Virus record (IMG/VR): IMGVR_UViG_2778261454_000012
Length of the DNA stretch: 11,516 nt
DNA from: a virus
Taxonomy: Duplodnaviria; Heunggongvirae; Uroviricota; Caudoviricetes
Direction: 5' to 3' (one strand)
Of the stretch, positions 1 to 11,516 are shown piece after piece; the first letter of the stretch is position 1, and the number at the start of each line of letters is the position of its first letter. The notes under the pieces were generated by a model. It was given only the letters and a program-made list of their open reading frames with translations, did not search any database and was not told the origin of the DNA. Both the position numbers and the translations under genes were made by a program.

Positions 1-443
1 TGAAACGTAAAACACTGCCTCTGCTGGCGCTGGTTGCCACCACTCTGTTTCTCATCGCATGCGATGACAGAAGTGATGACCTGAAGGCCATCAGTAAATT
101 TAAGGACCTCACCCCACCGCGTTTCAGTGATGTGGTCAGCCACCAGGATGATGTCAGCGAAGAATGGTCACAGGTTGACTACTTATCCGGTCCCACCTTG
201 CAGGTTTTACGTACCCGCCAGTCGCCCGATGGCTGCGAGGATGGCAGTTACTACTACCTCGTGGATATGCAGGAAAAAACCGTCCAGCCACTGATGAATG
301 CGCTGTGTATTGCCGATAACATCAAACTGGAATACCAGGAGGTGACGGACCCGTATACCAAAGAAAAATACTTTGAGTACGCCCATGACGGCAAACTGAT
401 GGGGCGACTGCTGATACCCTCAAACCCTGACAATCAGGAATAA
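1..443 (+). CDS. yafY: Inner-membrane lipoprotein, YafY/YfjS family (5' partial: window starts at the 2nd base of the ATG)
   Basis: Frame from position 3 reads KRKTLPLLALVATTLFLIAC-DD and continues into track ORF 132..443. Lipobox LIAC with Asp at +2 is the inner-membrane retention signal (established for YafY/YfjS). Position upstream of the ykfB-ykfF-yafX block matches CP4-6 gene order from memory. Confidence 0.6.
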   Translation, partial: KRKTLPLLALVATTLFLIACDDRSDDLKAISKFKDLTPPRFSDVVSHQDDVSEEWSQVDYLSGPTLQVLRTRQSPDGCEDGSYYYLVDMQEKTVQPLMNALCIADNIKLEYQEVTDPYTKEKYFEYAHDGKLMGRLLIPSNPDNQE

Positions 444-465
444 AACAACGATAAAGGAGACAAGA

Positions 466-933
466 ATGACAATACTTTCACTAAGTCGGTTTATGCTGGC
501 GGGTGTACTGCTCGCGAGCTTTAATGCCTCTGCTATCCCGGGGTTCTGGCAGCAGGGTTACGGTCAGGGCAATACGGAATACAGCGTGACCGAAGCCAGC
601 GGAAAGACGTTTACCATCAACTGCACAGGGAACCCGGACCAGAATGGTTTCTATCAGCATTCAGTCTTTCTTACCCTTGCCGATGACAAGATGGTCAGTT
701 CGCACGATGACGACACTACTATCACCGTAGTGATGGATCACCAGCAGTACATTATTCCGTCCAGCCTGGGCTGGCGTAACGGCGATAACGCCTGGTTTGA
801 CTTCATCAGCAATATCTCTGAGGCCGGGCAGTTCGACGTCTACGTCAATGACCACAAAGCAGGGACCTTCACTGCGGACCGGAAGAACGCTGAGAAAGTT
901 CTGTCCACTCTCGGAGACTGCAGCAACGACTGA
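466..933 (+). CDS. Secreted/periplasmic protein with N-terminal signal peptide (YkfB-like by position)
   Basis: 155-aa ORF. AAGGAG at 454-459, 6 nt before the ATG. N-terminus [23 protein letters not shown] is hydrophobic and signal-peptide-like. Followed by hairpin terminator at 960-994. Confidence 0.6.
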
Positions 934-959
934 TAGTAGCATCTTCCCCAGCAAATCCA

Positions 960-994
960 CCCCGACAGCTAGCAGGCTGCCGGGGTTTTCTTTT
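960..994 (+). terminator. Rho-independent terminator-like hairpin
   Basis: ccccgacagc / gctgccgggg stem (9 of 10 bp) with 6-nt loop, followed by ttttctttt. Confidence 0.5.
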
Positions 995-1009
995 ATCAGG
1001 AGCCCGAAA

Positions 1010-1249
1010 ATGACCCAATCCGTGTTGCTGCCACCGGGGCCTTTCACCCGGAGACAAGCGCAAGCGGTCACTACCACGTACAGCAATATCACACTCGAAG
1101 ACGACCAGGGCAGTCACTTCCGTCTGGTGGTTCGTGATACTGAAGGCCGGATGGTCTGGCGGGCATGGAACTTTGAGCCGGATGCCGGTGAAGGTCTTAA
1201 CCGCTATATCCGCACCTCAGGCATCCGTACAGACACGGCCACCCGCTGA
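1010..1249 (+). CDS. ykfF: DUF905-family small protein (YkfF-like), 79 aa
   Basis: Internal ATG at 1010 preceded by AGGAG (998-1002). Product [20 protein letters not shown]... is 79 aa; the longer track ORF 797..1249 overlaps the upstream gene and is rejected. Gene order matches CP4-6. Confidence 0.6.
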
Positions 1250-1302
1250 TCGCGAAGCATTTACCCGCATTCACCTCCCCGAACACACTTTATATCCCCA
1301 TA

Positions 1303-1328
1303 CGCCAGCCATCGCCGCTGGCGTTTTT
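1303..1328 (+). terminator. Rho-independent terminator-like hairpin
   Basis: cgccagc / gctggcg 7-bp stem, 7-nt loop, then ttttt. Confidence 0.5.
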
Positions 1329-1346
1329 ATTGACGGAGACATACCC

Positions 1347-1805
1347 ATGATAACACAGACGCAGCACGACCTCGCACCCGCTAACCAACCCGAATTTGAA
1401 CTGACCGTCACGCCGGTCCCCGATGAACAGCGTATCGATTTCTGGCCACAGTACTTTGGCGCTATCCCGCAGTGGCTACTCCTGGAGCCGCATATCTTCG
1501 CCTGGATGGACCGCTTCTGTGAGGGCTACAGCGGTGGTATCTGGTCGTTCTACACCCTCAGCAATGGCGGCGCATTTATGTCCCCCGAGCCTGACAACGA
1601 TGAGACATGGCGTCTGTTTAACTGCCTGAACGGTAACGATGCCCAAATGAGTGCAGAAGCAGCAGGTATTGCTGTCTGCCTGATTGCGTATAGCCACCAT
1701 GCCTGCCGTACAGAATGTGACGCGATGACCGCACACTATTACCGCCTGCGGGAGTATGCCATGCAACATCCAGAGGCTCACGCCATTCTGCGTATTATCG
1801 ACTGA
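1347..1805 (+). CDS. yafX: Antirestriction protein, ArdB/KlcA-like (YafX/YfjX/YeeS-type), 152 aa
   Basis: ATG at 1347 with GGAGA 7 nt upstream. Product MITQTQHDLAPANQPEFELTV...EAHAILRIID matches the conserved CP4-type antirestriction protein from memory. The track ORF 1134..1805 N-terminal extension is rejected. Confidence 0.7.
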   Translation: MITQTQHDLAPANQPEFELTVTPVPDEQRIDFWPQYFGAIPQWLLLEPHIFAWMDRFCEGYSGGIWSFYTLSNGGAFMSPEPDNDETWRLFNCLNGNDAQMSAEAAGIAVCLIAYSHHACRTECDAMTAHYYRLREYAMQHPEAHAILRIID

Positions 1806-1820
1806 CCGAAGGAGCAACAG

Positions 1821-2297
1821 ATGAAACAGCTTTCCTTTTTACCCGGCGAGATGACGCCACAGGACCGGCGTCTCATTCAGCGGGCGCTCAGGGCTCTGGA
1901 CCGCCACCTGCATGAGCCCGGCGTAGCCTTCACCTCTACCCACGCCGTACGTGAATGGCTGCGACTGCATATGGCCGCGCTTGAGCGGGAAGAGTTCCGG
2001 GTGTTGTATCTGGACAACCAGAATCAGTTGATTGCCCATGAAACGCTCTTCACCGGCACGATTAACCGCACCGAGGTGCATCCCCGGGAGGTGGTCAAAC
2101 GTGCTCTGCACTTCAACGCGGCGGCGGTGATACTCGCGCATAACCATCCTTCCGGCGAGACGACACCTAGCCAGGCCGACAAAACCCTCACGCAGCGACT
2201 GGTTCAGGTGCTTCAGCTGGTGGATATCCGTGTCCCTGACCATCTGATTGTCGGTGGCAGGCAAATCTATTCGTTCGCAGAACACGGTCTGCTTTGA
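1821..2297 (+). CDS. ykfG: RadC-like JAB-domain protein (YkfG/YfjY/YeeS family), 158 aa
   Basis: AAGGAG RBS before ATG 1821. Contains the JAMM-like motif region ...AAAVILAHNHPSGETTPSQAD... (HNHPSG is the RadC/JAB signature). Confidence 0.75.
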   Translation: MKQLSFLPGEMTPQDRRLIQRALRALDRHLHEPGVAFTSTHAVREWLRLHMAALEREEFRVLYLDNQNQLIAHETLFTGTINRTEVHPREVVKRALHFNAAAVILAHNHPSGETTPSQADKTLTQRLVQVLQLVDIRVPDHLIVGGRQIYSFAEHGLL

Positions 2298-2305
2298 GGT
2301 ATTAC

Positions 2306-2527
2306 ATGAAAATTATCAGTAAACGCAGGGCAATGACGATATACCGCCAGCATCCTGAGTCCCGAATCTTTCGCTACTGCACCGGCAAATACCAGTGGCA
2401 CGGTAGCGTCTGTCATTACACCGGCAGGGACGTTCCGGATATCGCCGGAGTCCTCGCGGTATACGCCGAACGCCGCCAGGACCGCAATGGGCCCTATACC
2501 TGCCTGATGAGCATCACCCTGAACTGA
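2306..2527 (+). CDS. ykfH: DUF987-family small protein (YkfH/YeeT/YfjZ-neighbour type), 73 aa
   Basis: Internal ATG at 2306 gives MKIISKRRAMTIYRQHPESRIFRYCTGKYQWHG..., 73 aa, with GAGG upstream. Conserved partner immediately upstream of the CbeA-type antitoxin. Confidence 0.6.
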   Translation: MKIISKRRAMTIYRQHPESRIFRYCTGKYQWHGSVCHYTGRDVPDIAGVLAVYAERRQDRNGPYTCLMSITLN

Positions 2528-2545
2528 CAATAGTGGAGAACTGTA

Positions 2546-3225
<680 letters not shown>

Positions 3226-3290
3226 ACATTGCGTACAACCTTCCCGATTTACATTTCTGAACTTCCTCCCTTGTTTACCTATTGCGTAAT

Positions 3291-3326
3291 GCGCCTGCTA
3301 CTACCCGGCAGGCGCGTTATCTTTTT
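3291..3326 (+). terminator. Rho-independent terminator downstream of the toxin gene
   Basis: gcgcctgc / gcaggcgc perfect 8-bp stem, 9-nt loop, followed by gttatcttttt. Confidence 0.6.
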
Positions 3327-3596
3327 ACGGACAAACAATCATGCAACCAGAAGTTGAAGTATTAACCGATCATAATGAGCTAATTTGTTCGAGCTTTATT
3401 GAACACATTGCCAACACATTAAATTTAGGAGTGGTGTACAACTAAACCTGCAGCCAAGGATGTATAGTGAGCGAAGCCCTATCAGGCCTTTTTGGTCAGT
3501 AGATAAGATTGATCTTCGTTGATAGAATTTACTTACACCAGCTGTTACATTAAGATAATTTTTTGGTGGGAGAATGATAAGATCTTACGTAACAAT

Positions 3597-3652
3597 TTGA
3601 TTTTAATGGTGCCGATAATAGGAGTCGAACCTACGACCTTCGCATTACGAAT
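3597..3652 (-). repeat. att-type direct repeat: partial copy of the thrW 3' part (46 nt of tRNA from the anticodon loop to CCA, plus 10 bp of flank)
   Basis: 3597-3652 matches 10063-10118 with one mismatch (3604 t vs 10070 a). Identity stops exactly at attacgaat (anticodon loop). Sequence diverges on both sides. Confidence 0.85.
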
Positions 3653-3843
3653 CTGTAGCACCAATCATAACTATCTGTTTTAGCAAGCATTAACCGCATT
3701 CACTAAGCTATAGTTGATGGCACAAACAGAAAGTTGATGCATGATGTTGTCATGTATATGTCACAAATACGGCACAACGATCTTCAAACATGTAGCCACA
3801 CATCCACAGAAGAGCACAAAGCCTTGCAATCCAGTGCAACGCT

Positions 3844-4071
3844 TTGTGTACCATAGTTTTTCCTTATCAACTACCGCAAGTATCGATCGATGGAGGCTTG
3901 GATGTTAAATTTCATGACTTTGATCACTTGGTGCATCACGAAACTATCGAAGTGCAACTCGCTCATGCCAACGGCGGATCTGTGCGTGGGATTTACAACC
4001 ATGCTCAGTATCTCGATAAGCGCAGAGAAATGATGCAGTGGTGGGCGGATTGGATTGATGAGAAGGCGTGA
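3844..4071 (+). pseudogene. C-terminal fragment of a P4-family tyrosine integrase (remnant)
   Basis: Translation ...KFHDFDHLVHHETIEVQLAHANGGSVRGIYNHAQYLDKRREMMQWWADWIDEKA carries the P4-type C-terminal signature (E-x-x-LAH...VRG-x-YN-x-x-Y...RR-x-MMQ-x-WAD). The frame is open only from 3796 (TAG at 3793-3795); track start is a TTG. The N-terminal ~300 aa are absent. Confidence 0.6.
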
Positions 4072-4165
4072 TGCTTTCCATCTTTCCATTCGGATTCCTC
4101 CTACCAGGCTTGCCGGTATGGTGATATAGTTAATGTTTTACTTTTTATAGTTTATAGATAAACAG

Positions 4166-5215
4166 ATGAAAAATAATAGCATCCAGATAGCAAGGGCGAT
4201 TGCCGCGTTACTTGTAGTGTTTCACCATTTGTTTATACCAATATTCCATAGAGATAATGCCTACACAGATTATCTGAAGCATTTTAATTTTAGCTTCATC
4301 GGTGATTATGCCGTTTATGTTTTTTTCTGTATAAGCGGTTACGTAATGATGATGTCAACGACAAAAAAGCATAAAGGATCGATATCTTTCCTGAGTGACA
4401 GAATATTAAGAATCTATCCTTCGTATATTATATGGACAGTTATCGCCATTGCTTTAGTATACATTGGCAGAGTAATTGGCTATGAAATTGTTAGATTTAA
4501 AAATATTCCTCATAATGTTGTGGATATGATTCAGGTATTGCTTTTGTTGCCTTCTATTTCTGACCACAGCAACTACGCCATGACTTTGCCAACAGCATGG
4601 TCACTTGTGTATGAAATGTATTACTACGTTGTATTTGCTCTATTACTTAAATTTATTAGTGTTCGTAATATCCCGTATGCTCTCATGGGTATATTTGCTT
4701 TATCTTCGTTTGTTATTAACTCAAACTTCCCTCAGGGTAGGTACGGTTGGGTGAATTTATGGTACATTATTGGGGACTATGCGAATATATGTTTTGCATC
4801 GGGGGCGCTGATATATAACATAACAAACAACATCAATAATCCAATAAAATACAAACACCTCCCAATTGCGATTGTATTATTATTTGCGGTATTGCTATCT
4901 TCCAATAACGGCTCACTATACCAAATAAATATAATCATGATGTCAATTACAACGTTCATTTTATTTCTTTTTAGTGACTTTGGGAGTGGTGTGCTTTCTA
5001 GATGTTTTTCATATATCGGTGATGCATCGTATAGTATATACATAACCCACATGCTATTTAATTTAGCGGCTTGGAATTCTTGGACTCAGTATAGCAGTTT
5101 GGTTGGTGCCTTTGGAATTTCTATAACATCAATAGTATTTGGGATTATAGCTTACGAATTCCTTGAAAAACCATTAACGATGGCGTCCAGAACTTTAAAG
5201 CAAAGAGTTGCTTAA
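4166..5215 (+). CDS. Acyltransferase-3 family integral membrane protein, O-antigen/LPS O-acetyltransferase-like (Oac/OafA-type)
   Basis: 349 aa, many hydrophobic segments. N-terminal IARAIAALLVVFHH and RILRIYPSYIIW motifs are typical of the AT3 family. Strongly AT-rich. Convergent with the tailspike-like gene, next to the att repeat, as in Sf6-type conversion modules. Confidence 0.7.
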   Translation: MKNNSIQIARAIAALLVVFHHLFIPIFHRDNAYTDYLKHFNFSFIGDYAVYVFFCISGYVMMMSTTKKHKGSISFLSDRILRIYPSYIIWTVIAIALVYIGRVIGYEIVRFKNIPHNVVDMIQVLLLLPSISDHSNYAMTLPTAWSLVYEMYYYVVFALLLKFISVRNIPYALMGIFALSSFVINSNFPQGRYGWVNLWYIIGDYANICFASGALIYNITNNINNPIKYKHLPIAIVLLFAVLLSSNNGSLYQINIIMMSITTFILFLFSDFGSGVLSRCFSYIGDASYSIYITHMLFNLAAWNSWTQYSSLVGAFGISITSIVFGIIAYEFLEKPLTMASRTLKQRVA

Positions 5216-5218
5216 GAT

Positions 5219-5240
5219 AAAGGGCGCAAACGCGCCCTTT
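5219..5240. terminator. Bidirectional rho-independent terminator between the convergent genes
   Basis: aaagggcgc / gcgcccttt perfect 9-bp stem with aaac loop, A-run on the left and tttattattt on the right. Confidence 0.75.
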
Positions 5241-5245
5241 ATTAT

Positions 5246-7210
5246 TTAGGGGTTTCTGACCTGCCATACTTTGTCATAGCCGTGCGTATACCCACATCGT
5301 GTAACGGTTAGGTGTACTATTGCCATTGATAGAGTAGGCGTATCAAACCGGAAGCGAATATACGTCCCTCCGTTTACTACCTGCTTTACAACGTTAATTC
5401 CTGTTAGATTTTTGTCTCCTGGATCATAATTTGTCCATATATTGCCTGCTGAGGATATATCTGATTGCGTTGTACCAGAAACAGTTGCCAGAATCCTGCC
5501 ACCGGAACCTGATGATGTAACCCCGGATTTTCCAACAGGAAAAATGATTGCTTCCACGCATAAAAAATTCCCGCCAGGCGTCTTGGTTTCCTCCCCCACT
5601 GCGGTAAGGAAAACATCAAGTGATGCACCATATGGAACGATAACCGTCCCCTTGTCTGTAGATACATTGTTAAAAACAGCATTACTGTTGTAGTTTACTG
5701 CCGAAAGAACAGCCCCAATTCTGTTATTAGATATGCTATTTGAGGATTCAGTTCCGTACCACCTTCCATTTATTTTTACGCTTTGCGCCTTGGTAGAGTT
5801 CATTTTAGATGCAGTTACCGAGCTAACAAATCTAAATGTATCCTTGATCTCAAAACCACGGCATTGATTAATGTTGCTGTCGTTGCTATTGACAAAGAAC
5901 TGTACCGCCCTATCGGTCTTTATCATCCCTGTTTGGAATACTGCCATTCCTAATACGTTTGTTGCATTGTCAGGAGTTTTAACCACGGATGTTACTGTTG
6001 AGTCTCGTGTAGTCTGAATCCAACAATCAACAGCATCAAAATATATAGCAGATCGTTCAGTTTCAGCAAATGGTGAGAAATCAAATAACGTATCACCCCT
6101 AACCCCTTCAATACCTAATCCAGTTATTTTTAAATCTCTCCCCCTGTAAAATTTGTGTGGGGTAATACACATATCTGCGGCAATATTATTTGCCGCAACG
6201 TACATCAATACCTCATCATCTGAGAATGCGGGAATTTTTGATACCCTATCATAGGTTGCTCCCCAACAAAAACCGACTCCGCATCTTAATGCCCACGCAG
6301 CTGATAGATTTATAGATGTTGCAACTAGGGTCATGCCAAAGTTGCATGAATACATGAATACTCTGTCGCTTTCAGATACGAAACATGACAATGCCAGACC
6401 AACATTGTATCTCATGAGGTTTACATTGTTTATTTTATATTGCTGCCCACCTCCGGAAGGTTGCCCTAACTCTGAGTTACCTGAAATTACTAGAGGGCAG
6501 CCAACAGTTTCCTCATCGGCATTAACAAAGCCAATGTTTTCAACCAATAATTCATGACACCATGTTGCACAGAAGAAACCGCCGTCTCCGGATGTGTATA
6601 TTACTGAGTGGAGCGGGTTTGTGCCGAAAATATTTAACGAGTACCCATCCCATCTTTTCGCAGTAATATCAATTGAGGTATCGCCAATATACATAGGGCT
6701 ATCAATAAAGATTGGCATGTATGTATTATAGGCCGCAATCAATGCTGCGCTGTCGTTTGTTACCCCAGTCAGGTCAGGCCTAGGCATATCCGTGTCGTGA
6801 TTAATATCATGAACATCAACTTTTGGCGCATCCATCCACGCGCCAAACATACGAGGTGTTACGTACCCCTTCCCTTGCAGATCTCGTTTCCAGCGTTTAC
6901 CACCCGCAGTGACAATGACCATGCCGTTATCATCTGCAGAAGTCGAATCTGTGAAATCGGCCACAAACAGACCACCACCAGTATCACCTGATACTGTCGG
7001 CTTCATGCCTGTAGTGTGGAAGTCGACGAAAATCTTTTGCTGATCTCGCTCAGGCTCAATTGTCCTTAACATTGCTATATCAGGGCATGTCCCGATGTAT
7101 TTAAGACCGTCTTCATTGCCGTCCCATAAAGGAGGTGATGCGGATGTTTTTCTTTTATCGCTACTTGTAACATCAGGAATAGCGATTACTTCTATTGTTG
7201 TTTTCTTCAA
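5246..7210 (-). CDS. Tailspike-like right-handed beta-helix protein (putative polysaccharide depolymerase/receptor-binding protein), 654 aa; start uncertain
   Basis: Long clean ORF. Around residues 115-150, GYVTPRMFGA...LTGVTNDSAALIAAYN resembles the pectate-lyase-fold entry motif (FGA...G-x-TDD-x-AA). Many Asn/Gly-rich repeats downstream. Position and orientation match a P22/Sf6 tailspike. The only start at the ORF head is TTG at 7208-7210, with no Shine-Dalgarno and a stop just upstream. Confidence 0.5.
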   Translation of the reverse strand: MKKTTIEVIAIPDVTSSDKRKTSASPPLWDGNEDGLKYIGTCPDIAMLRTIEPERDQQKIFVDFHTTGMKPTVSGDTGGGLFVADFTDSTSADDNGMVIVTAGGKRWKRDLQGKGYVTPRMFGAWMDAPKVDVHDINHDTDMPRPDLTGVTNDSAALIAAYNTYMPIFIDSPMYIGDTSIDITAKRWDGYSLNIFGTNPLHSVIYTSGDGGFFCATWCHELLVENIGFVNADEETVGCPLVISGNSELGQPSGGGQQYKINNVNLMRYNVGLALSCFVSESDRVFMYSCNFGMTLVATSINLSAAWALRCGVGFCWGATYDRVSKIPAFSDDEVLMYVAANNIAADMCITPHKFYRGRDLKITGLGIEGVRGDTLFDFSPFAETERSAIYFDAVDCWIQTTRDSTVTSVVKTPDNATNVLGMAVFQTGMIKTDRAVQFFVNSNDSNINQCRGFEIKDTFRFVSSVTASKMNSTKAQSVKINGRWYGTESSNSISNNRIGAVLSAVNYNSNAVFNNVSTDKGTVIVPYGASLDVFLTAVGEETKTPGGNFLCVEAIIFPVGKSGVTSSGSGGRILATVSGTTQSDISSAGNIWTNYDPGDKNLTGINVVKQVVNGGTYIRFRFDTPTLSMAIVHLTVTRCGYTHGYDKVWQVRNP

Positions 7211-7290
7211 TTATTTCGACTGGCTGAAAATCTGGCTTGCTCCAAAACTTTACCTTATCGAATATGCAGCATCATTGGTTAAGTAATTTC

Positions 7291-7316
7291 AGGCCGCATA
7301 GTCGGCCTTCATTTTT
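7291..7316 (+). terminator. Terminator-like hairpin (plus orientation) in the junction region
   Basis: aggccg / cggcct 6-bp stem, 6-nt loop catagt, then tcattttt. Confidence 0.4.
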
Positions 7317-7345
7317 GGCATAAACAACAGAATAAACACTGCACT

Positions 7346-7373
7346 GTGTATTCATTCCAACGAGTGAATACAC
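7346..7373. promoter_or_regulatory. Perfect 9-bp inverted repeat (gtgtattca N10 tgaatacac), candidate operator or RNA hairpin
   Basis: Read directly: 7346-7354 is the reverse complement of 7365-7373. Lies about 100 bp upstream of the ATG at 7475. Confidence 0.35.
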
Positions 7374-7474
7374 GGAGCAATGTCGCTCGTAACTAAACAG
7401 GAGCCGACTTGTTCTGATTATTGGAAATCTTCTTTGCCCTCCAGTGTGAGGTCAATTTTTTTGACGGAGGATAT

Positions 7475-8443
7475 ATGAGTGAAGTAACAGATTTAGTTGT
7501 TATTGAAAAAGCAAATGCAATGACTGTATTTCAGTCTGCCGACCAGATTGAAGAAATCCTTCAAAAGGTTGAACGTGAAGTTATGTCCTTTGTGCCTGAT
7601 ATCACAACGGCAAAGGGCAGAAAGGAGATCGCTTCTCTGGCGTATAAAGTTGCGCAGACGAAAACATATCTCGATGGCCTTGGCAAAGACCTTGTTGCTG
7701 AACTGAAGGAAATTCCAAAGCTAATTGATGCCAACCGCAAGACAGTACGCGATCGCCTTGATGAACTGAAAGCCAAGGCGCGCCAGCCTCTTACTGATTA
7801 TGAGGAAGAACAGGCGCGGATTAAAGCCGAAGAAGAAGCTAAGGCAGCAGCTGAAGCTCTCGCAAAGCAAATTGAGTCTGACCATGAAATAGCGATTTTG
7901 ATGGATCGCGAATTTGACCGCCAAAGAGAAGAGGCAAGACTCAAAGCGGAGCAGGAAAAGCGAGAGCATGAAGAACGCTTAAAAAGAGAAGCTGAAGAGA
8001 AAGCCAGAGCAGAAGCCGAAGCAAAGGCAAAAGCCGAAATTGAAGCAGCAGCAAGGCGAGAAGCAGAAGCTAAGGCAGCAGCGGAACGTGCAGAGCGTGA
8101 ACGCATTGAAGCTGAGCAACGAGCACAGCGCGAAGCAAAAGAGGCAGCAGAACGAGCTGAAAGAGAAAAGCAGGCGGCAATTGAAGCAGAACGCCGAAAA
8201 GCACAGGAGGAGGCTGAACGAATCCGGCGCGAGGCTGAAGCAAAAGAGCAAGCCAGAATAGCAGAAGAAAAAAGAATCAAGGACGAAGAAGAGCGTAGAG
8301 CAAAGGATAAAGCTCACCGGAAAGAAGTAAATAACAAAATACTTGCTGACCTTATCAAGGTTGGCGCATCAGAAGATGTTGCTAAAAATATCATAACAGC
8401 CATCGTAAAAGGCGAAGTATTCGCAACAAAAATAACCTACTAA
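7475..8443 (+). CDS. Phage early-region protein with a long ER/K-rich charged alpha-helical (coiled-coil or single-alpha-helix) segment, 322 aa
   Basis: ATG at 7475 with GGAGG (7466-7470). N-terminal domain MSEVTDLVVIEK...; central ~150 aa is almost only E/A/K/R/Q in heptad-like repeats (AEEKARAEAEAKAKAEIEAAARREAEAKAAAERAERER...); short C-terminal domain. The upstream 18 codons of track ORF 7421 begin with TTG and are rejected. Confidence 0.65.
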   Translation: MSEVTDLVVIEKANAMTVFQSADQIEEILQKVEREVMSFVPDITTAKGRKEIASLAYKVAQTKTYLDGLGKDLVAELKEIPKLIDANRKTVRDRLDELKAKARQPLTDYEEEQARIKAEEEAKAAAEALAKQIESDHEIAILMDREFDRQREEARLKAEQEKREHEERLKREAEEKARAEAEAKAKAEIEAAARREAEAKAAAERAERERIEAEQRAQREAKEAAERAEREKQAAIEAERRKAQEEAERIRREAEAKEQARIAEEKRIKDEEERRAKDKAHRKEVNNKILADLIKVGASEDVAKNIITAIVKGEVFATKITY

Positions 8444-8467
8444 TAAAACCAACATAAGGAACCACCC

Positions 8468-8599
8468 ATGATTCACGCAATCGCGGGAGGCGCTCGCATG
8501 GGTGCCTTCCAACTAAATGAATCTTTACTTGAACGAATCACCCGTAAATTACGTGACGGATGGAAAAGAGTTGAGGTCTTATTATGCGCAATGAAATAG
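8468..8599 (+). CDS. Small hypothetical early protein, 43 aa
   Basis: ATG at 8468 with AAGGA 8 nt upstream. MIHAIAGGARMGAFQLNESLLERITRKLRDGWKRVEVLLCAMK. Overlaps the next ORF. Confidence 0.35.
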   Translation: MIHAIAGGARMGAFQLNESLLERITRKLRDGWKRVEVLLCAMK

Positions 8600-8736
8600 C
8601 CATCAATCACCAGATGCTTCGTGCAGCACAGAACAAAGCAGTAATAGCCAGATTTATTGGTGATTCAAAAATGTGGATTGAAGCAAATAAAGCGATGAAA
8701 TCAGCTATCAACCTTCCGTGGTATCGCAGGAAATGA
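8584..8736 (+). CDS. Small hypothetical early protein, 50 aa
   Basis: ATG at 8584 with GAGG upstream. MRNEIAINHQMLRAAQNKAVIARFIGDSKMWIEANKAMKSAINLPWYRRK. Stop overlaps the next start (ATGA). Confidence 0.4.
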   Translation: MRNEIAINHQMLRAAQNKAVIARFIGDSKMWIEANKAMKSAINLPWYRRK

Positions 8737-8891
8737 GTTTTACAGATAACTGGTCAGACGAAGAATTCATTCGTCAGATGAAAGAATTAATCGGTAACGA
8801 AGGAGATATTCATGTCACTTGCAACCACAGTGAAGGAGAGCAAGTTACAGAGACGCATGTACACGCAGAAAGCTCTCTGGTATCGCCATAA
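8733..8891 (+). CDS. Small hypothetical early protein, 52 aa, acidic
   Basis: ATGA overlap with the preceding ORF (translational coupling). MSFTDNWSDEEFIRQMKELIGNEGDIHVTCNHSEGEQ.... Overlaps the 8812 ORF in another frame, so one of the two may be spurious. Confidence 0.3.
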   Translation: MSFTDNWSDEEFIRQMKELIGNEGDIHVTCNHSEGEQVTETHVHAESSLVSP

Positions 8892-8982
8892 TGGCGACCG
8901 CGAAGGAATGCGGGTATGCCTTAATTTGTCCCGAGTCGAAGTATTAAATCAGCGTTATTTCCTTGGGCCGTGTCCATTCTGA
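8812..8982 (+). CDS. Small hypothetical early protein, 56 aa
   Basis: ATG at 8812 with AGGAG 6 nt upstream. MSLATTVKESKLQRRMYTQKALWYRHNGDREGMRVCLNLSRVEVLNQRYFLGPCPF. Ends 8 nt before the next gene. Confidence 0.45.
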   Translation: MSLATTVKESKLQRRMYTQKALWYRHNGDREGMRVCLNLSRVEVLNQRYFLGPCPF

Positions 8983-8990
8983 GGTGAATT

Positions 8991-9698
8991 ATGGATTTGA
9001 ACAAATTCGATGAGCCATTCAGCCCTGAAGATATCGAATGGCGAATACAGCAAAGCGGTAAAACACGCGATGGCAAGGTGTGGGCTATGGTGCTGGCTTA
9101 TGTCACGAACAGGGCAATCATGAAACGCCTGGACGATGTTTGCGGCAAAGCAGGATGGCGCAATGAATACCGCGATATTCCCAACAACGGCGGCGTTGAA
9201 TGCGGCATATCAATCAGGATTGATTCCGAATGGGTAACCAAATGGGATGCTGCTGAAAACACGCAGGTAGAAGCCGTCAAAGGTGGTCGTTCCGGTGCAA
9301 TGAAGCGCGCTGCCGTTCAGTGGGGAATCGGTCGGTATCTGTATAACATTGAGGAAGGTTTCGCACAAACATCTCTCGATAAAAAGCAGGGATGGCACAG
9401 GGCAAAACTCAAGGATGGAACAGGATTTTACTGGCTCCCTCCATCGCTGCCGGGATGGGCAATCCCAGCATCAGATAACAAACCATCACCAGAAAATACC
9501 AACCAGAAATCTCCATCGGTTGACTGCGAGCAAATCCTGAAAGACTTCAGCGATTATGCGTCAACAGAAACTGACAAGAAAAAACTCATCGAGCGTTATC
9601 AGCGTGACTGGCAATTAATGGCTGGCAACGAGGAGGCGCAGGCTAAATGCGTTCAGGTAATGAACATCAGAGTTAACGAACTAAAACAGGCGGCATAA
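8991..9698 (+). CDS. Single-strand annealing protein, Rad52/Rad22 (Sak-like) family, 235 aa
   Basis: GAGGTG RBS. Contains ...GVECGISIRIDSEW...KGGRSGAMKRAAVQWGIGRYLYN..., the Rad52/22-type GIGRYLY signature. Followed directly (TAAATG) by an ssb start. Confidence 0.7.
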   Translation: MDLNKFDEPFSPEDIEWRIQQSGKTRDGKVWAMVLAYVTNRAIMKRLDDVCGKAGWRNEYRDIPNNGGVECGISIRIDSEWVTKWDAAENTQVEAVKGGRSGAMKRAAVQWGIGRYLYNIEEGFAQTSLDKKQGWHRAKLKDGTGFYWLPPSLPGWAIPASDNKPSPENTNQKSPSVDCEQILKDFSDYASTETDKKKLIERYQRDWQLMAGNEEAQAKCVQVMNIRVNELKQAA

Positions 9699-10058
9699 AT
9701 GGCAAGCAGAGGCGTAAATAAGGTGATTATCCTTGGTCGGGTAGGACAAGACCCGGAAGTTCGATACTCACCATCAGGAACAGCGTTCGCTAAGGGAGCG
9801 TTAAAGCGGGCAGGCATTAGCAACTTCCGCTTCCATGATCTGAGGCATACCTGGGCAAGCTGGCTGGTTCAGTCCGGTGTCTCTCTTCTTGCACTTAAAG
9901 AGATGGGAGGATGGGAAACTCTCGAAATGGTTCAAAGATACGCCCACCTTTCAGCCGGGCATCTCACCGAGCACGCAAGCAAAATCGATGCGATTATAAG
10001 TCGCAATGGCACAAATACGGCACAAGAGGAGAACGTGGTTTACTTAAATGCTAGGTAA
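9699..10058 (+). pseudogene. In-frame chimera: SSB N-terminus (about 29 aa) fused to C-terminal catalytic segment of a tyrosine integrase (about 90 aa)
   Basis: [29 protein letters not shown] is the canonical SSB N-terminus. From about codon 30 the product reads ...[48 protein letters not shown]..., the box II region (H-x-x-R ... Y) of phage integrases. Ends 14 bp before the thrW 3' end, convergent with it. Confidence 0.75.
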
Positions 10059-10072
10059 CTTATTGATTTAAA

Positions 10073-10148
10073 TGGTGCCGATAATAGGAGTCGAACCTAC
10101 GACCTTCGCATTACGAATGCGCTGCTCTACCAACTGAGCTATATCGGC
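10073..10148 (-). tRNA. thrW: tRNA-Thr (anticodon CGU)
   Basis: Reverse complement reads GCCGATATAGCTCAGTTGGTAGAGCAGCGCATTCGTAATGCGAAGGTCGTAGGTTCGACTCCTATTATCGGCACCA, 76 nt. It has the D-arm GCTCAGTTGGTAGAGC, anticodon loop with CGT, T-arm GGTTCGACTCC and encoded CCA. Confidence 0.95.
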
Positions 10149-10262
10149 CCTGAAAGGACATGTTCACGAACGTGAATCACGGTGGACAAGGTTAAAACTA
10201 ACCGGGCGATGCGTCAATGGCCTTGTGAATCAAATGGCTACTTTTGCATCACCCGGTTTTAT

Positions 10263-11516
10263 TTACGCACGAATGGTGTAATCACCAATGCCGATCCACT
10301 TGTAAGTGGTCAGTGCTTCCAGCCCCATTGGGCCACGCGCGTGGAGTTTTTGTGTGCTTACCGCCACTTCCGCACCCAGACCAAACTGGCCGCCGTCGGT
10401 AAAACGCGTAGAGGCGTTAACGTAAACAGCGGACGAATCCACTTCGTTAACAAAACGCTGGGCGTTGCGCATATCGCGGGTCAGGATCGCATCGGAGTGT
10501 TGTGTGCCGTGTTCACGAATATGGGCGATGGCATCGTCAAGATCGCTGACGATTTTGACGTTCAAATCTAATGACAGAAACTCATCGTCATACTCTTCGG
10601 CTTTAACAGCAACCACCTTCGCAGGGCCTGCCTGCAACTGCGCCAGTGCAGCTGCATCTGCGTGTAATGTCACGCCGCTTTCCGCCATTTGTTTGCTTAA
10701 TGCGGGCAGGAAGCTATCGGCGATGTTTTTATTCACCAGCAACGTTTCAACCGTATTACATGTGCTCGGACGCTGAGTTTTCGCGTTGACGATCACTTTT
10801 AATGCTTCAGCGATCTCTACACTTTCATCAACGTAAATATGGCATACGCCTATACCACCTGTGATCACCGGGATTGTCGACTGTTCACGGCACAGTTTAT
10901 GCAAACCAGCGCCACCACGCGGGATCAGCATGTCGATGTATTTATCCATACGCAGCATTTCACTGACCAGCGCACGGTCAGGATTATCAATCGCCTGCAC
11001 GGCACCCGCCGGTAAGCCGCAGGATTTCAGGGCGTCCTGAATCACCGCCACCGTTGCAGCGTTAGTGCGACACGTTTCTTTGCCACCGCGCAGGATCACC
11101 GCATTACCGGTTTTCAGGCACAGCGAAGCGACATCAACCGTCACGTTCGGGCGCGCTTCATAAATCACGCCAATAACCCCCAGCGGTACGCGACGACGCT
11201 CAAGACGCAGGCCGCTGTCCAGTACGCCGCCATCGATTACCTGCCCCACCGGATCGGCGAGGTTGCACACCTGACGTACATCGTCGGCAATGCCTTTCAG
11301 CCGTGCGGGCGTCAGTGCCAGACGGTCAAGCATCGCTTCGCTAAGGCCATTGGCTCGCGCGTCAGCAACATCCTGGGCGTTAGCGTTGAGGATGATTTCG
11401 CTTTGTGCTTCCAGTTCATCGGCGATTTTTTCCAGCACGCGATTTTTTTCGCGGCTGGAGAGTTGCGCTAATTTATACGAGGCTTGCTTCGCGGCAATGC
11501 CCATTTGTTCCAGCAT
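10263..11516 (-). CDS. proA: Gamma-glutamyl phosphate reductase (proline biosynthesis), 417 aa, complete
   Basis: Translation [38 protein letters not shown]...[12 protein letters not shown] matches E. coli ProA in full. Start codon is the last three bases of the window. Confidence 0.97.

Follow-up and report, generated by a model that had tools for sequence, protein, structure and literature searches.

We analysed a DNA stretch of 11,516 nucleotides (hereafter the window) from the virus record IMGVR_UViG_2778261454_000012, where a 6.4 kb element is located between the tRNA gene thrW and the near end of a CP4-6-type island (Table 1). The single tRNA in the window, called by both ARAGORN and Rfam, is tRNA-Thr(CGT) at positions 10073-10148 on the minus strand, the Rfam scan of the window giving nothing beyond it, and this thrW is intact and has no sequence differences from the K-12 thrW. 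In the alignment to K-12 MG1655, window positions 1-3652 match at 99.7% and positions 10063-11516, corresponding to the thrW-proA block, match at 99.9%, both collinearly, with a 56 bp K-12 segment being aligned twice, i.e., duplicated in the window. The 6,410 bp of positions 3653-10062 are extra in the window and have no counterpart in K-12 MG1655.

An earlier note on this DNA had claimed that a 6.4 kb element lies here between thrW and an island that abuts thrW directly in K-12, so that two elements are stacked, and had called for the K-12 alignment. The claim is borne out, with the collinearity extending up to 3652 and resuming from 10063, and MG1655, the K-12-like genome in which the insert was looked for, does not already carry it at this site. 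The presence of two elements at thrW is thus real, but the description of them as nested is wrong, because the arrangement is tandem and the CP4-6-type island is uninterrupted. Very probably, as argued below, a P22-like phage inserted at thrW by site-specific recombination with a tyrosine integrase and then decayed beside the CP4-6-type island.

The thrW repeat and the attachment sites

The repeat finder gives 3586-3652 against 10052-10118 with 93% identity, where the copies 3597-3652 and 10063-10118 differ only by a single mismatch (3603 T, 10069 A) located inside the 10 nt flank past the 3' end of the tRNA. The perfect repeat block is the 46 nt of 3607-3652 and 10073-10118, corresponding to tRNA positions 31-76, for which the chance expectation of exact 46-mer repeats in 11.5 kb is about 1e-20. 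The repeat is the 3' segment of thrW in direct orientation, with one copy completing the intact gene. The intact thrW and the 56-bp repeat with one mismatch, both claimed in the earlier note, hold up in the tRNA calls and in the alignment of the two copies, and its statement that the repeat ends in the anticodon loop is off by no more than 1 nt: the exact block begins with the last base on the 5' side of the anticodon stem, 1 nt ahead of the anticodon loop.

The 46 nt are the published common core of the attachment (att) sites of SfI, SfII, SfV, SfX and P22 (PMC3636060), and this core is matched exactly at both places in the window. The comparison with the P22 attP, which had also been suggested, gives the identical 46 nt, terminating at the same nucleotide. 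Four att sequences were compared with one another, namely the K-12 attB, the HK75 attP and the two window junctions. The junction on the proA side (attL) runs from an HK75-type P arm through the core into the chromosomal 5' portion of thrW, and the junction on the island side (attR) is composed of the K-12 flank, the core and an HK75-type P' arm, the two being reciprocal clean hybrids of the HK75-type attP and the K-12 attB. The lone flank mismatch segregates as the hybrid arms predict, which implies that the exchange took place inside the tRNA part. The match to HK75 covers about 280 bp of the P arm and about 210 bp of the P' arm, and both att arms appear complete. The P' arm (3653-3864) is also contiguous with thrW' in the lambda-like AMSCJX03 prophage, HK446, mEpX2 and SfX. 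It is also seen that about 20 nt past the CCA are similar among K-12, the HK75 attP and the P22 attP.

Beside attL, a complete integrase gene and an excisionase gene were looked for and were not found, with only int codons 297-384 being present, fused to ssb, and the helix-turn-helix (HTH)/xis gene being deleted. An intact relative of this integrase is 99% identical to the HK446/HK75 Int, about 55% identical to the integrases of SfII and of P22-like Salmonella phages and 53% identical to the P22 Int, and the leftover fragment is thus clearly assignable to the P22 Int family. The P22-type integrase event that the earlier note had put forward is supported by this fragment together with the 46 nt att core. 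The protein encoded by the fusion retains the HxxR box together with the Trp and the catalytic Tyr; since the first catalytic Arg and the Lys are missing, it would be unable to work as an active recombinase.

It was also stated in the earlier note that P4-type enzymes, by contrast with the P22-type ones, typically use the T-arm end of the tRNA. In the summaries of Williams 2002 that later papers give (among them PMC4383910), integrase subfamilies prefer particular tRNA sublocations. The contrast fails at this site, however, because the CP4-6 island of K-12, next to intF, is bounded by a thrW repeat that extends from about tRNA position 28 to the CCA plus about 11 nt of 3' flank (in NC_000913.3, about 297,200-297,275, locus L007 3704-3773, against thrW at 262,898-262,970), rather than by a repeat limited to the T-arm or the 3' end of the tRNA. 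The possibility that IntF is itself a P22-type enzyme, which would explain the common sublocation, was considered and rejected, since IntF has no significant BLASTP similarity to P22-type Int. Two unrelated integrases, IntF and the P22-type Int, therefore appear to use the same segment of thrW, from the anticodon stem to the CCA.

Gene content and deletion joints of the insert

As judged from its sequence, the 6.4 kb insert is a decayed P22-like prophage, predicted to be an immobile remnant. The gene order around attP is as in P22, i.e., tailspike, conversion gene, attP, int ... erf, kil, c3, the early-left operon being oriented in the direction of int, and the best DNA matches of the element are N7, Sf6, CUS-3 and a P22-like prophage. 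An intact relative at the same site is the prophage of locus L001, with int convergent on thrW. The Pfam and PHROG searches of 3653-10072 give no xis and no packaging, head, ejection, lysis, replication, immunity or structural modules. The element described in the earlier note is not a complete mobile unit; with its truncated integrase and without an excisionase it is rather a prophage remnant.

The end of the element next to the island is of the late-gene type. The segment 3944-7114, holding the last 128 nt of intS, the acyltransferase gene and the tailspike gene minus 120 codons, matches, at 99.7% identity, a P22-like prophage that lies at argW in strain mip270_04. The integrase scar beside the P' arm is annotated as a partial integrase pseudogene in P22-like thrW prophages (HS, ZF8-1 and many others), and the whole block 3653-4071, consisting of the P' arm and the scar, is conserved in P22-like prophages of the HS/ZF8-1 type. 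Since the block is conserved in other prophages, the scar would be older than the present insertion and would record a swap of the int/att cassette in the phage lineage. A 72 aa open reading frame (ORF) at 3871-4089, antisense to the scar and without a family match, was rejected as a real gene. The GC content is 34-45% over 3600-7400, compared with 50-57% in the flanks.

The acyltransferase (GC 34-38%), an Acyl_transf_3 membrane protein, occupies the conversion slot between attP and the tailspike gene, and the protein has 100% aa identity with the copy in the P22-like prophage of mip270_04. From family and position it is probably a surface-polysaccharide or O-antigen O-acetyltransferase. Among the 50,697 records of the phage collection, no close characterised relative was found, even the best matches having less than 35% identity and Sf6 not being among the best 15 of the 23 matching records, and for this reason we do not call it an Oac homologue. 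The alignment of the tailspike gene to that of locus L002 ends 360 nt before the start of the latter gene; a TTG-initiated ORF of 654 aa (5246-7210) was rejected as giving the true tailspike start, because the homology ends at 7113. The acyltransferase and tailspike pair is shared with the argW prophage of mip270_04 and may represent a matched pair of receptor modification and receptor recognition. Strain mip270_04 (NZ_CM132654.1, a complete genome) has both the identical island end and, at argW, the tailspike/acyltransferase block, and may either be closely related to the source strain or have supplied the module.

On the thrW side, 7126-9793 is the distal early-left operon as in N7, Sf6 and the 19451123 prophage, and 9792-10118 is the int 3' end plus attP of the HK75/HK446 type. 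The surviving genes of the pL operon are presumably silent, because pL and N are gone. Near the start of this part there is a near-perfect hairpin at 7336-7383 (22 nt arms, 82% complementary, 4 nt loop) in a region resembling a pL-operon leader, with window positions 7322-7451 corresponding to 1501-1630 of the HK75 locus L005, just upstream of the terminators annotated in HK75. The 322 aa coiled-coil protein has no Pfam family and is labelled hypothetical, 'TolA' or coiled-coil in relatives; its repeat region has an AT skew of about 0.49, and the protein is conserved in Sf6, N7, HK633, CUS-3 and many prophages.

Two deletion joints are informative on the decay. At joint 2 (9792/9793), codon 32 of ssb is fused to codon 297 of the 384 codons of int, with the microhomology AA, and compared with the intact 19451123 prophage about 3.8 kb is lost, containing the rest of ssb, an anti-RecBCD gene, ea genes, the HTH/xis gene and three quarters of int. 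At joint 1, the Logan contig L012 (SRR33282647) agrees with the window at 100% on both sides, with 1,012 bp (L012 3491-4502) in place of the 12 bp at 7114-7125 of the window. The 12-mer of the window falls inside these 1,012 bp, in a fragment of a gp16-like gene, which implies that the window would be an L012-type remnant minus two microhomology deletions, one of 223 bp (TT) and the other of 777 bp (ATAA). The same remnant with 1 kb more in a public assembly thus points to a stepwise decay. The L012 remnant already has no tailspike N-terminus, no arc and not the bulk of the phage. It retains more of the ral/ORF35 region, and about 500 bp of it (3729-4222) matched none of the phages compared.

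The remnant recurs in independent assemblies, being 100% identical over the whole window in GCA_002518125.1, which is therefore the probable source, identical over 3624-10100 in Logan SRR3993847 and identical as far as the contigs extend in GCA_022538985.1 and in a JGI metagenome; among the 5,426 complete E. coli genomes it is present in none.

Table 1. Features of the window, with position, strand and the evidence or remarks on each; L numbers denote the loci compared.
Feature	Position	Strand	Evidence or remark
CP4-6-type island, near end	1-3596	+	99.7% identical to and collinear with K-12 262,9xx-266,5xx; gene calls from loci L004 and L009, which are identical or nearly so
yafY/yfjS	to 443	+	lacks its first base
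ykfB	466-933	+	
ykfF	1010-1249	+	
yafX, antirestriction	1347-1805	+	
ykfG, RadC/JAB	1821-2297	+	
ykfH	2306-2527	+	
yafW, antitoxin	2546-2863	+	
ykfI, toxin	2884-3225	+	
attR	3597-3652	-	displaced original 3' part of thrW (3607-3652, tRNA positions 31-76) and 10 nt of K-12-type 3' flank (3597-3606); 3603 is the K-12 allele
P' arm of thrW-type attP	3653-3864	.	96% identical to the HK75 attP arm
IntS-type (argW-type) integrase gene, last 128 nt	3944-4071	+	aligns to the intS 3' end in L002
Acyltransferase, 349 aa, Acyl_transf_3, intact	4166-5215	+	Pfam PF01757 1e-30; phrog_3333 O-acetyltransferase 1e-50
Tailspike gene without its first ~120 codons (head-binding domain)	5246-7113	-	99.7% to the L002 tailspike; PHROG tail-fibre/depolymerase matches
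gp16-like ejection-protein gene relic, 12 nt CATTGCCGTCCC	7114-7125	.	same 12-mer in the gp16-like fragment of L012 and in L002
pL-operon gene, 3' part	7126-7286	+	phage N7 ORF35-like; phrog_3054
Coiled-coil protein of the pL operon, 322 aa	7475-8443	+	Glu/Ala/Lys-rich repeats; phrog_1376, phrog_21365; repeat families D1, D3
cIII	8468-8599	+	coordinates transferred from L001 by gap-free alignment; Lambda_CIII in L009
kil	8584-8736	+	Pfam Lambda_Kil 2e-19; phrog_2055
Two small overlapping pL-operon ORFs	8733-8982 (8733/8718-8891; 8812-8982)	+	phrog_2123, phrog_1723; L001/L009 annotations
Rad52/Erf-like single-strand annealing protein, 235 aa, intact	8991-9698	+	Pfam Rad52_Rad22 2e-25; phrog_1097 3e-129
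In-frame ssb'-'int fusion ORF, 119 aa	9699-10058	+	SSB codons 1-32 and integrase codons 297-384; Pfam SSB and Phage_integrase; L001/HK75 alignment
attL	10059-10118	-	phage P arm past the stop codon of int, 14 nt (10059-10072), and 46 nt core (10073-10118); 10069 is the phage allele
thrW, tRNA-Thr(CGT), intact	10073-10148	-	5' part chromosomal, 3' part phage-supplied; ARAGORN, Rfam, K-12 identity
proA, chromosomal backbone	10263-11516	-	K-12 collinearity and relatives

Proposed pathway and its alternatives

Starting from the observed repeat, hybrid att arms, deletion joints and gene content, the following pathway is proposed. The E. coli strain would most likely already have carried the CP4-6-type island directly behind thrW when it was infected by a temperate P22-like phage having an integrase of the HK75/HK446 type and an attP in which the 3'-terminal 46 nt of thrW are present. 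The crossover would have occurred within the 46 nt common to attP and thrW, after which the phage copy would complete a working tRNA at attL on the proA side, and the original 3' piece would be pushed to the far end of the prophage, in attR, and remains in contact with the island there. At least five deletions between very short microhomologies would then have shrunk the prophage from some 40 kb to 6.4 kb. Through one of them, ssb would have become joined to the final 88 codons of int and xis would have been lost, making the remnant unable to excise by itself; through the others, the genes for the head, lysis, replication and immunity would have gone, together with the head-binding domain of the tailspike. 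The survivors would be the intact acyltransferase, a damaged tailspike and the end of the pL operon, now without its promoter.

Several points weigh against this pathway or limit it. No intact progenitor having this tailspike, this acyltransferase and a thrW-type int was found in the 5,426 complete E. coli genomes or in the 50,697 phage records, and thus the full extent of the main deletion is reconstructed from relatives. The promoter/terminator scan of the element gives counts no higher than those of shuffled sequence, with nothing convincing upstream of the acyltransferase gene. Moreover, the order of arrival is not provable from sequence alone, because an island integrating into the phage attR would give the same product. 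At least 80% coverage of the element, or of the 3653-4400 junction, was found in no complete E. coli genome and no phage record.

If the phage had come first and the CP4-6-type island had later been integrated into the attR copy of thrW, the final sequence would be identical, and such use of secondary att sites does occur, as SfI inserted into the attL of a resident SfX (PMC3306764). This order is nevertheless quite improbable. The attR does not contain tRNA positions 25-30, which are part of the K-12 CP4-6 repeat, and should therefore be a poorer target for IntF; and the island at an intact thrW is widespread, with at least 80% of window 1-3700 being present in 472 genomes, while no more than 4 of the 5,426 complete genomes have the exact attR junction of the ykfI end, the thrW fragment and the phage P' arm. 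In strain mip270_04 the island is 100% identical over window 1-3652 and the match stops there. By parsimony, that is, because the island abutting an intact thrW is common, because of this match in mip270_04 and because of the positions missing from attR, the island was presumably present before the phage. In AMSCJX03, the one junction carrier examined, the phage side is composed of at least 20 kb of lambda-like late genes, and the thrW fragment plus P' arm beside other sequence occurs in many more genomes than these four.

Having given the reasons for preferring an arrival of the phage after the island, we consider whether the 6.4 kb unit could still be functional. As both att arms appear complete relative to HK75, as one cargo gene, the acyltransferase gene, is intact and as the remnant is found in several assemblies, the unit might be thought of as a streamlined mobile element, either satellite-like or a helper-dependent cassette. 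This is very unlikely, because the boundaries of the unit cut genes, with the head-binding domain of the tailspike lost and the ssb'-'int fusion having no first catalytic Arg and no Lys, because the unit has no xis, replication or packaging functions, and because all its occurrences have one chromosomal location and identical flanks, pointing to vertical inheritance. Less improbable, but still doubtful, is that the remnant is retained as a domesticated cassette, whose acyltransferase modifies the O antigen or another surface polysaccharide and which, since both att arms are complete, can be mobilised when an incoming phage of the HK75/HK446 type supplies Int and Xis; were it so, the acyltransferase would change the serotype or the phage sensitivity. 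That the structure is an assembly chimera made through the 56 bp repeat has almost no probability. Short-read assemblers do break at this repeat, the contigs L012 and L013 ending within it, but the 40 kb NCBI contig of L009 spans both junctions with 100% identity to the window, and each junction is separately present in complete genomes.

Relation to known systems at thrW

The phage P22 and the serotype-converting Shigella phages SfI, SfII, SfV and SfX are inserted at thrW beside proA with the identical 46 nt core and with int convergent on thrW, and, as here, they carry a surface-polysaccharide modification gene at the opposite prophage end, by attR, with the tailspike or tail genes adjacent. 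The differences are that the Int is only about 53-55% identical to the Int of P22 and SfII, that those phages carry gtrABC where a single acyltransferase gene is present here, and that the element here is a 6.4 kb remnant. HK75, HK446, mEpX2 and the intact 19451123 thrW prophage share with the window, at 96-99% identity, the attP arms, the 3' end of int and the cIII-kil-Rad52-ssb block. These are complete lambda-like siphoviruses, however, whereas the late end of the window element is P22/Sf6-like and matches the argW prophage.

A remnant of a few kb at the same tRNA site with its conversion gene kept is also known from the SHI-O islands, which are small remnants of serotype-converting phages at thrW or argW keeping only the conversion genes for O-antigen modification (PMC7545054). 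They have gtrABV instead of an acyltransferase gene, while the window remnant also keeps part of the pL operon and has a putative effect on the O antigen. A single tRNA gene is occupied by successive elements separated by a tRNA fragment, as in the tandem lysogens at thrW that were produced experimentally with SfX and SfI (PMC3306764) and in the tandem arrays at tRNA genes catalogued in Islander (PMC4383910). At thrW of E. coli HS and ZF8-1, a P22-like prophage is followed by a second island with its own integrase. As in an Islander array, each member here has its own tRNA fragment, with 3597-3652 separating the remnant from the island, and the distal fragment of the island lying outside the window and being present in K-12. 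The rule of one integrase per member is different, because the int of the remnant is truncated and the integrase of the island lies beyond the window, so that the proximal member, being without an integrase, would fail it. Compared with the CP4-6 of K-12, the neighbouring island end is 99.7% alike, but the K-12 island touches the intact thrW whereas the window island touches only the displaced 3' fragment.

The element is thus an ordinary decayed prophage of a well-known kind, with nothing in it that challenges current understanding. Its value is as a clean worked example, in which one tRNA gene appears to be used by two unrelated integrases at the same sublocation, with the fragment of the tRNA by which the earlier island is marked being displaced by the later arrival, after which the prophage decays via small microhomology deletions, of which an intermediate is still present in the public data. 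Island-finding tools whose rules demand one integrase per array member would overlook such a remnant or merge it. The surviving acyltransferase is a candidate modifier of the serotype or of a phage receptor.

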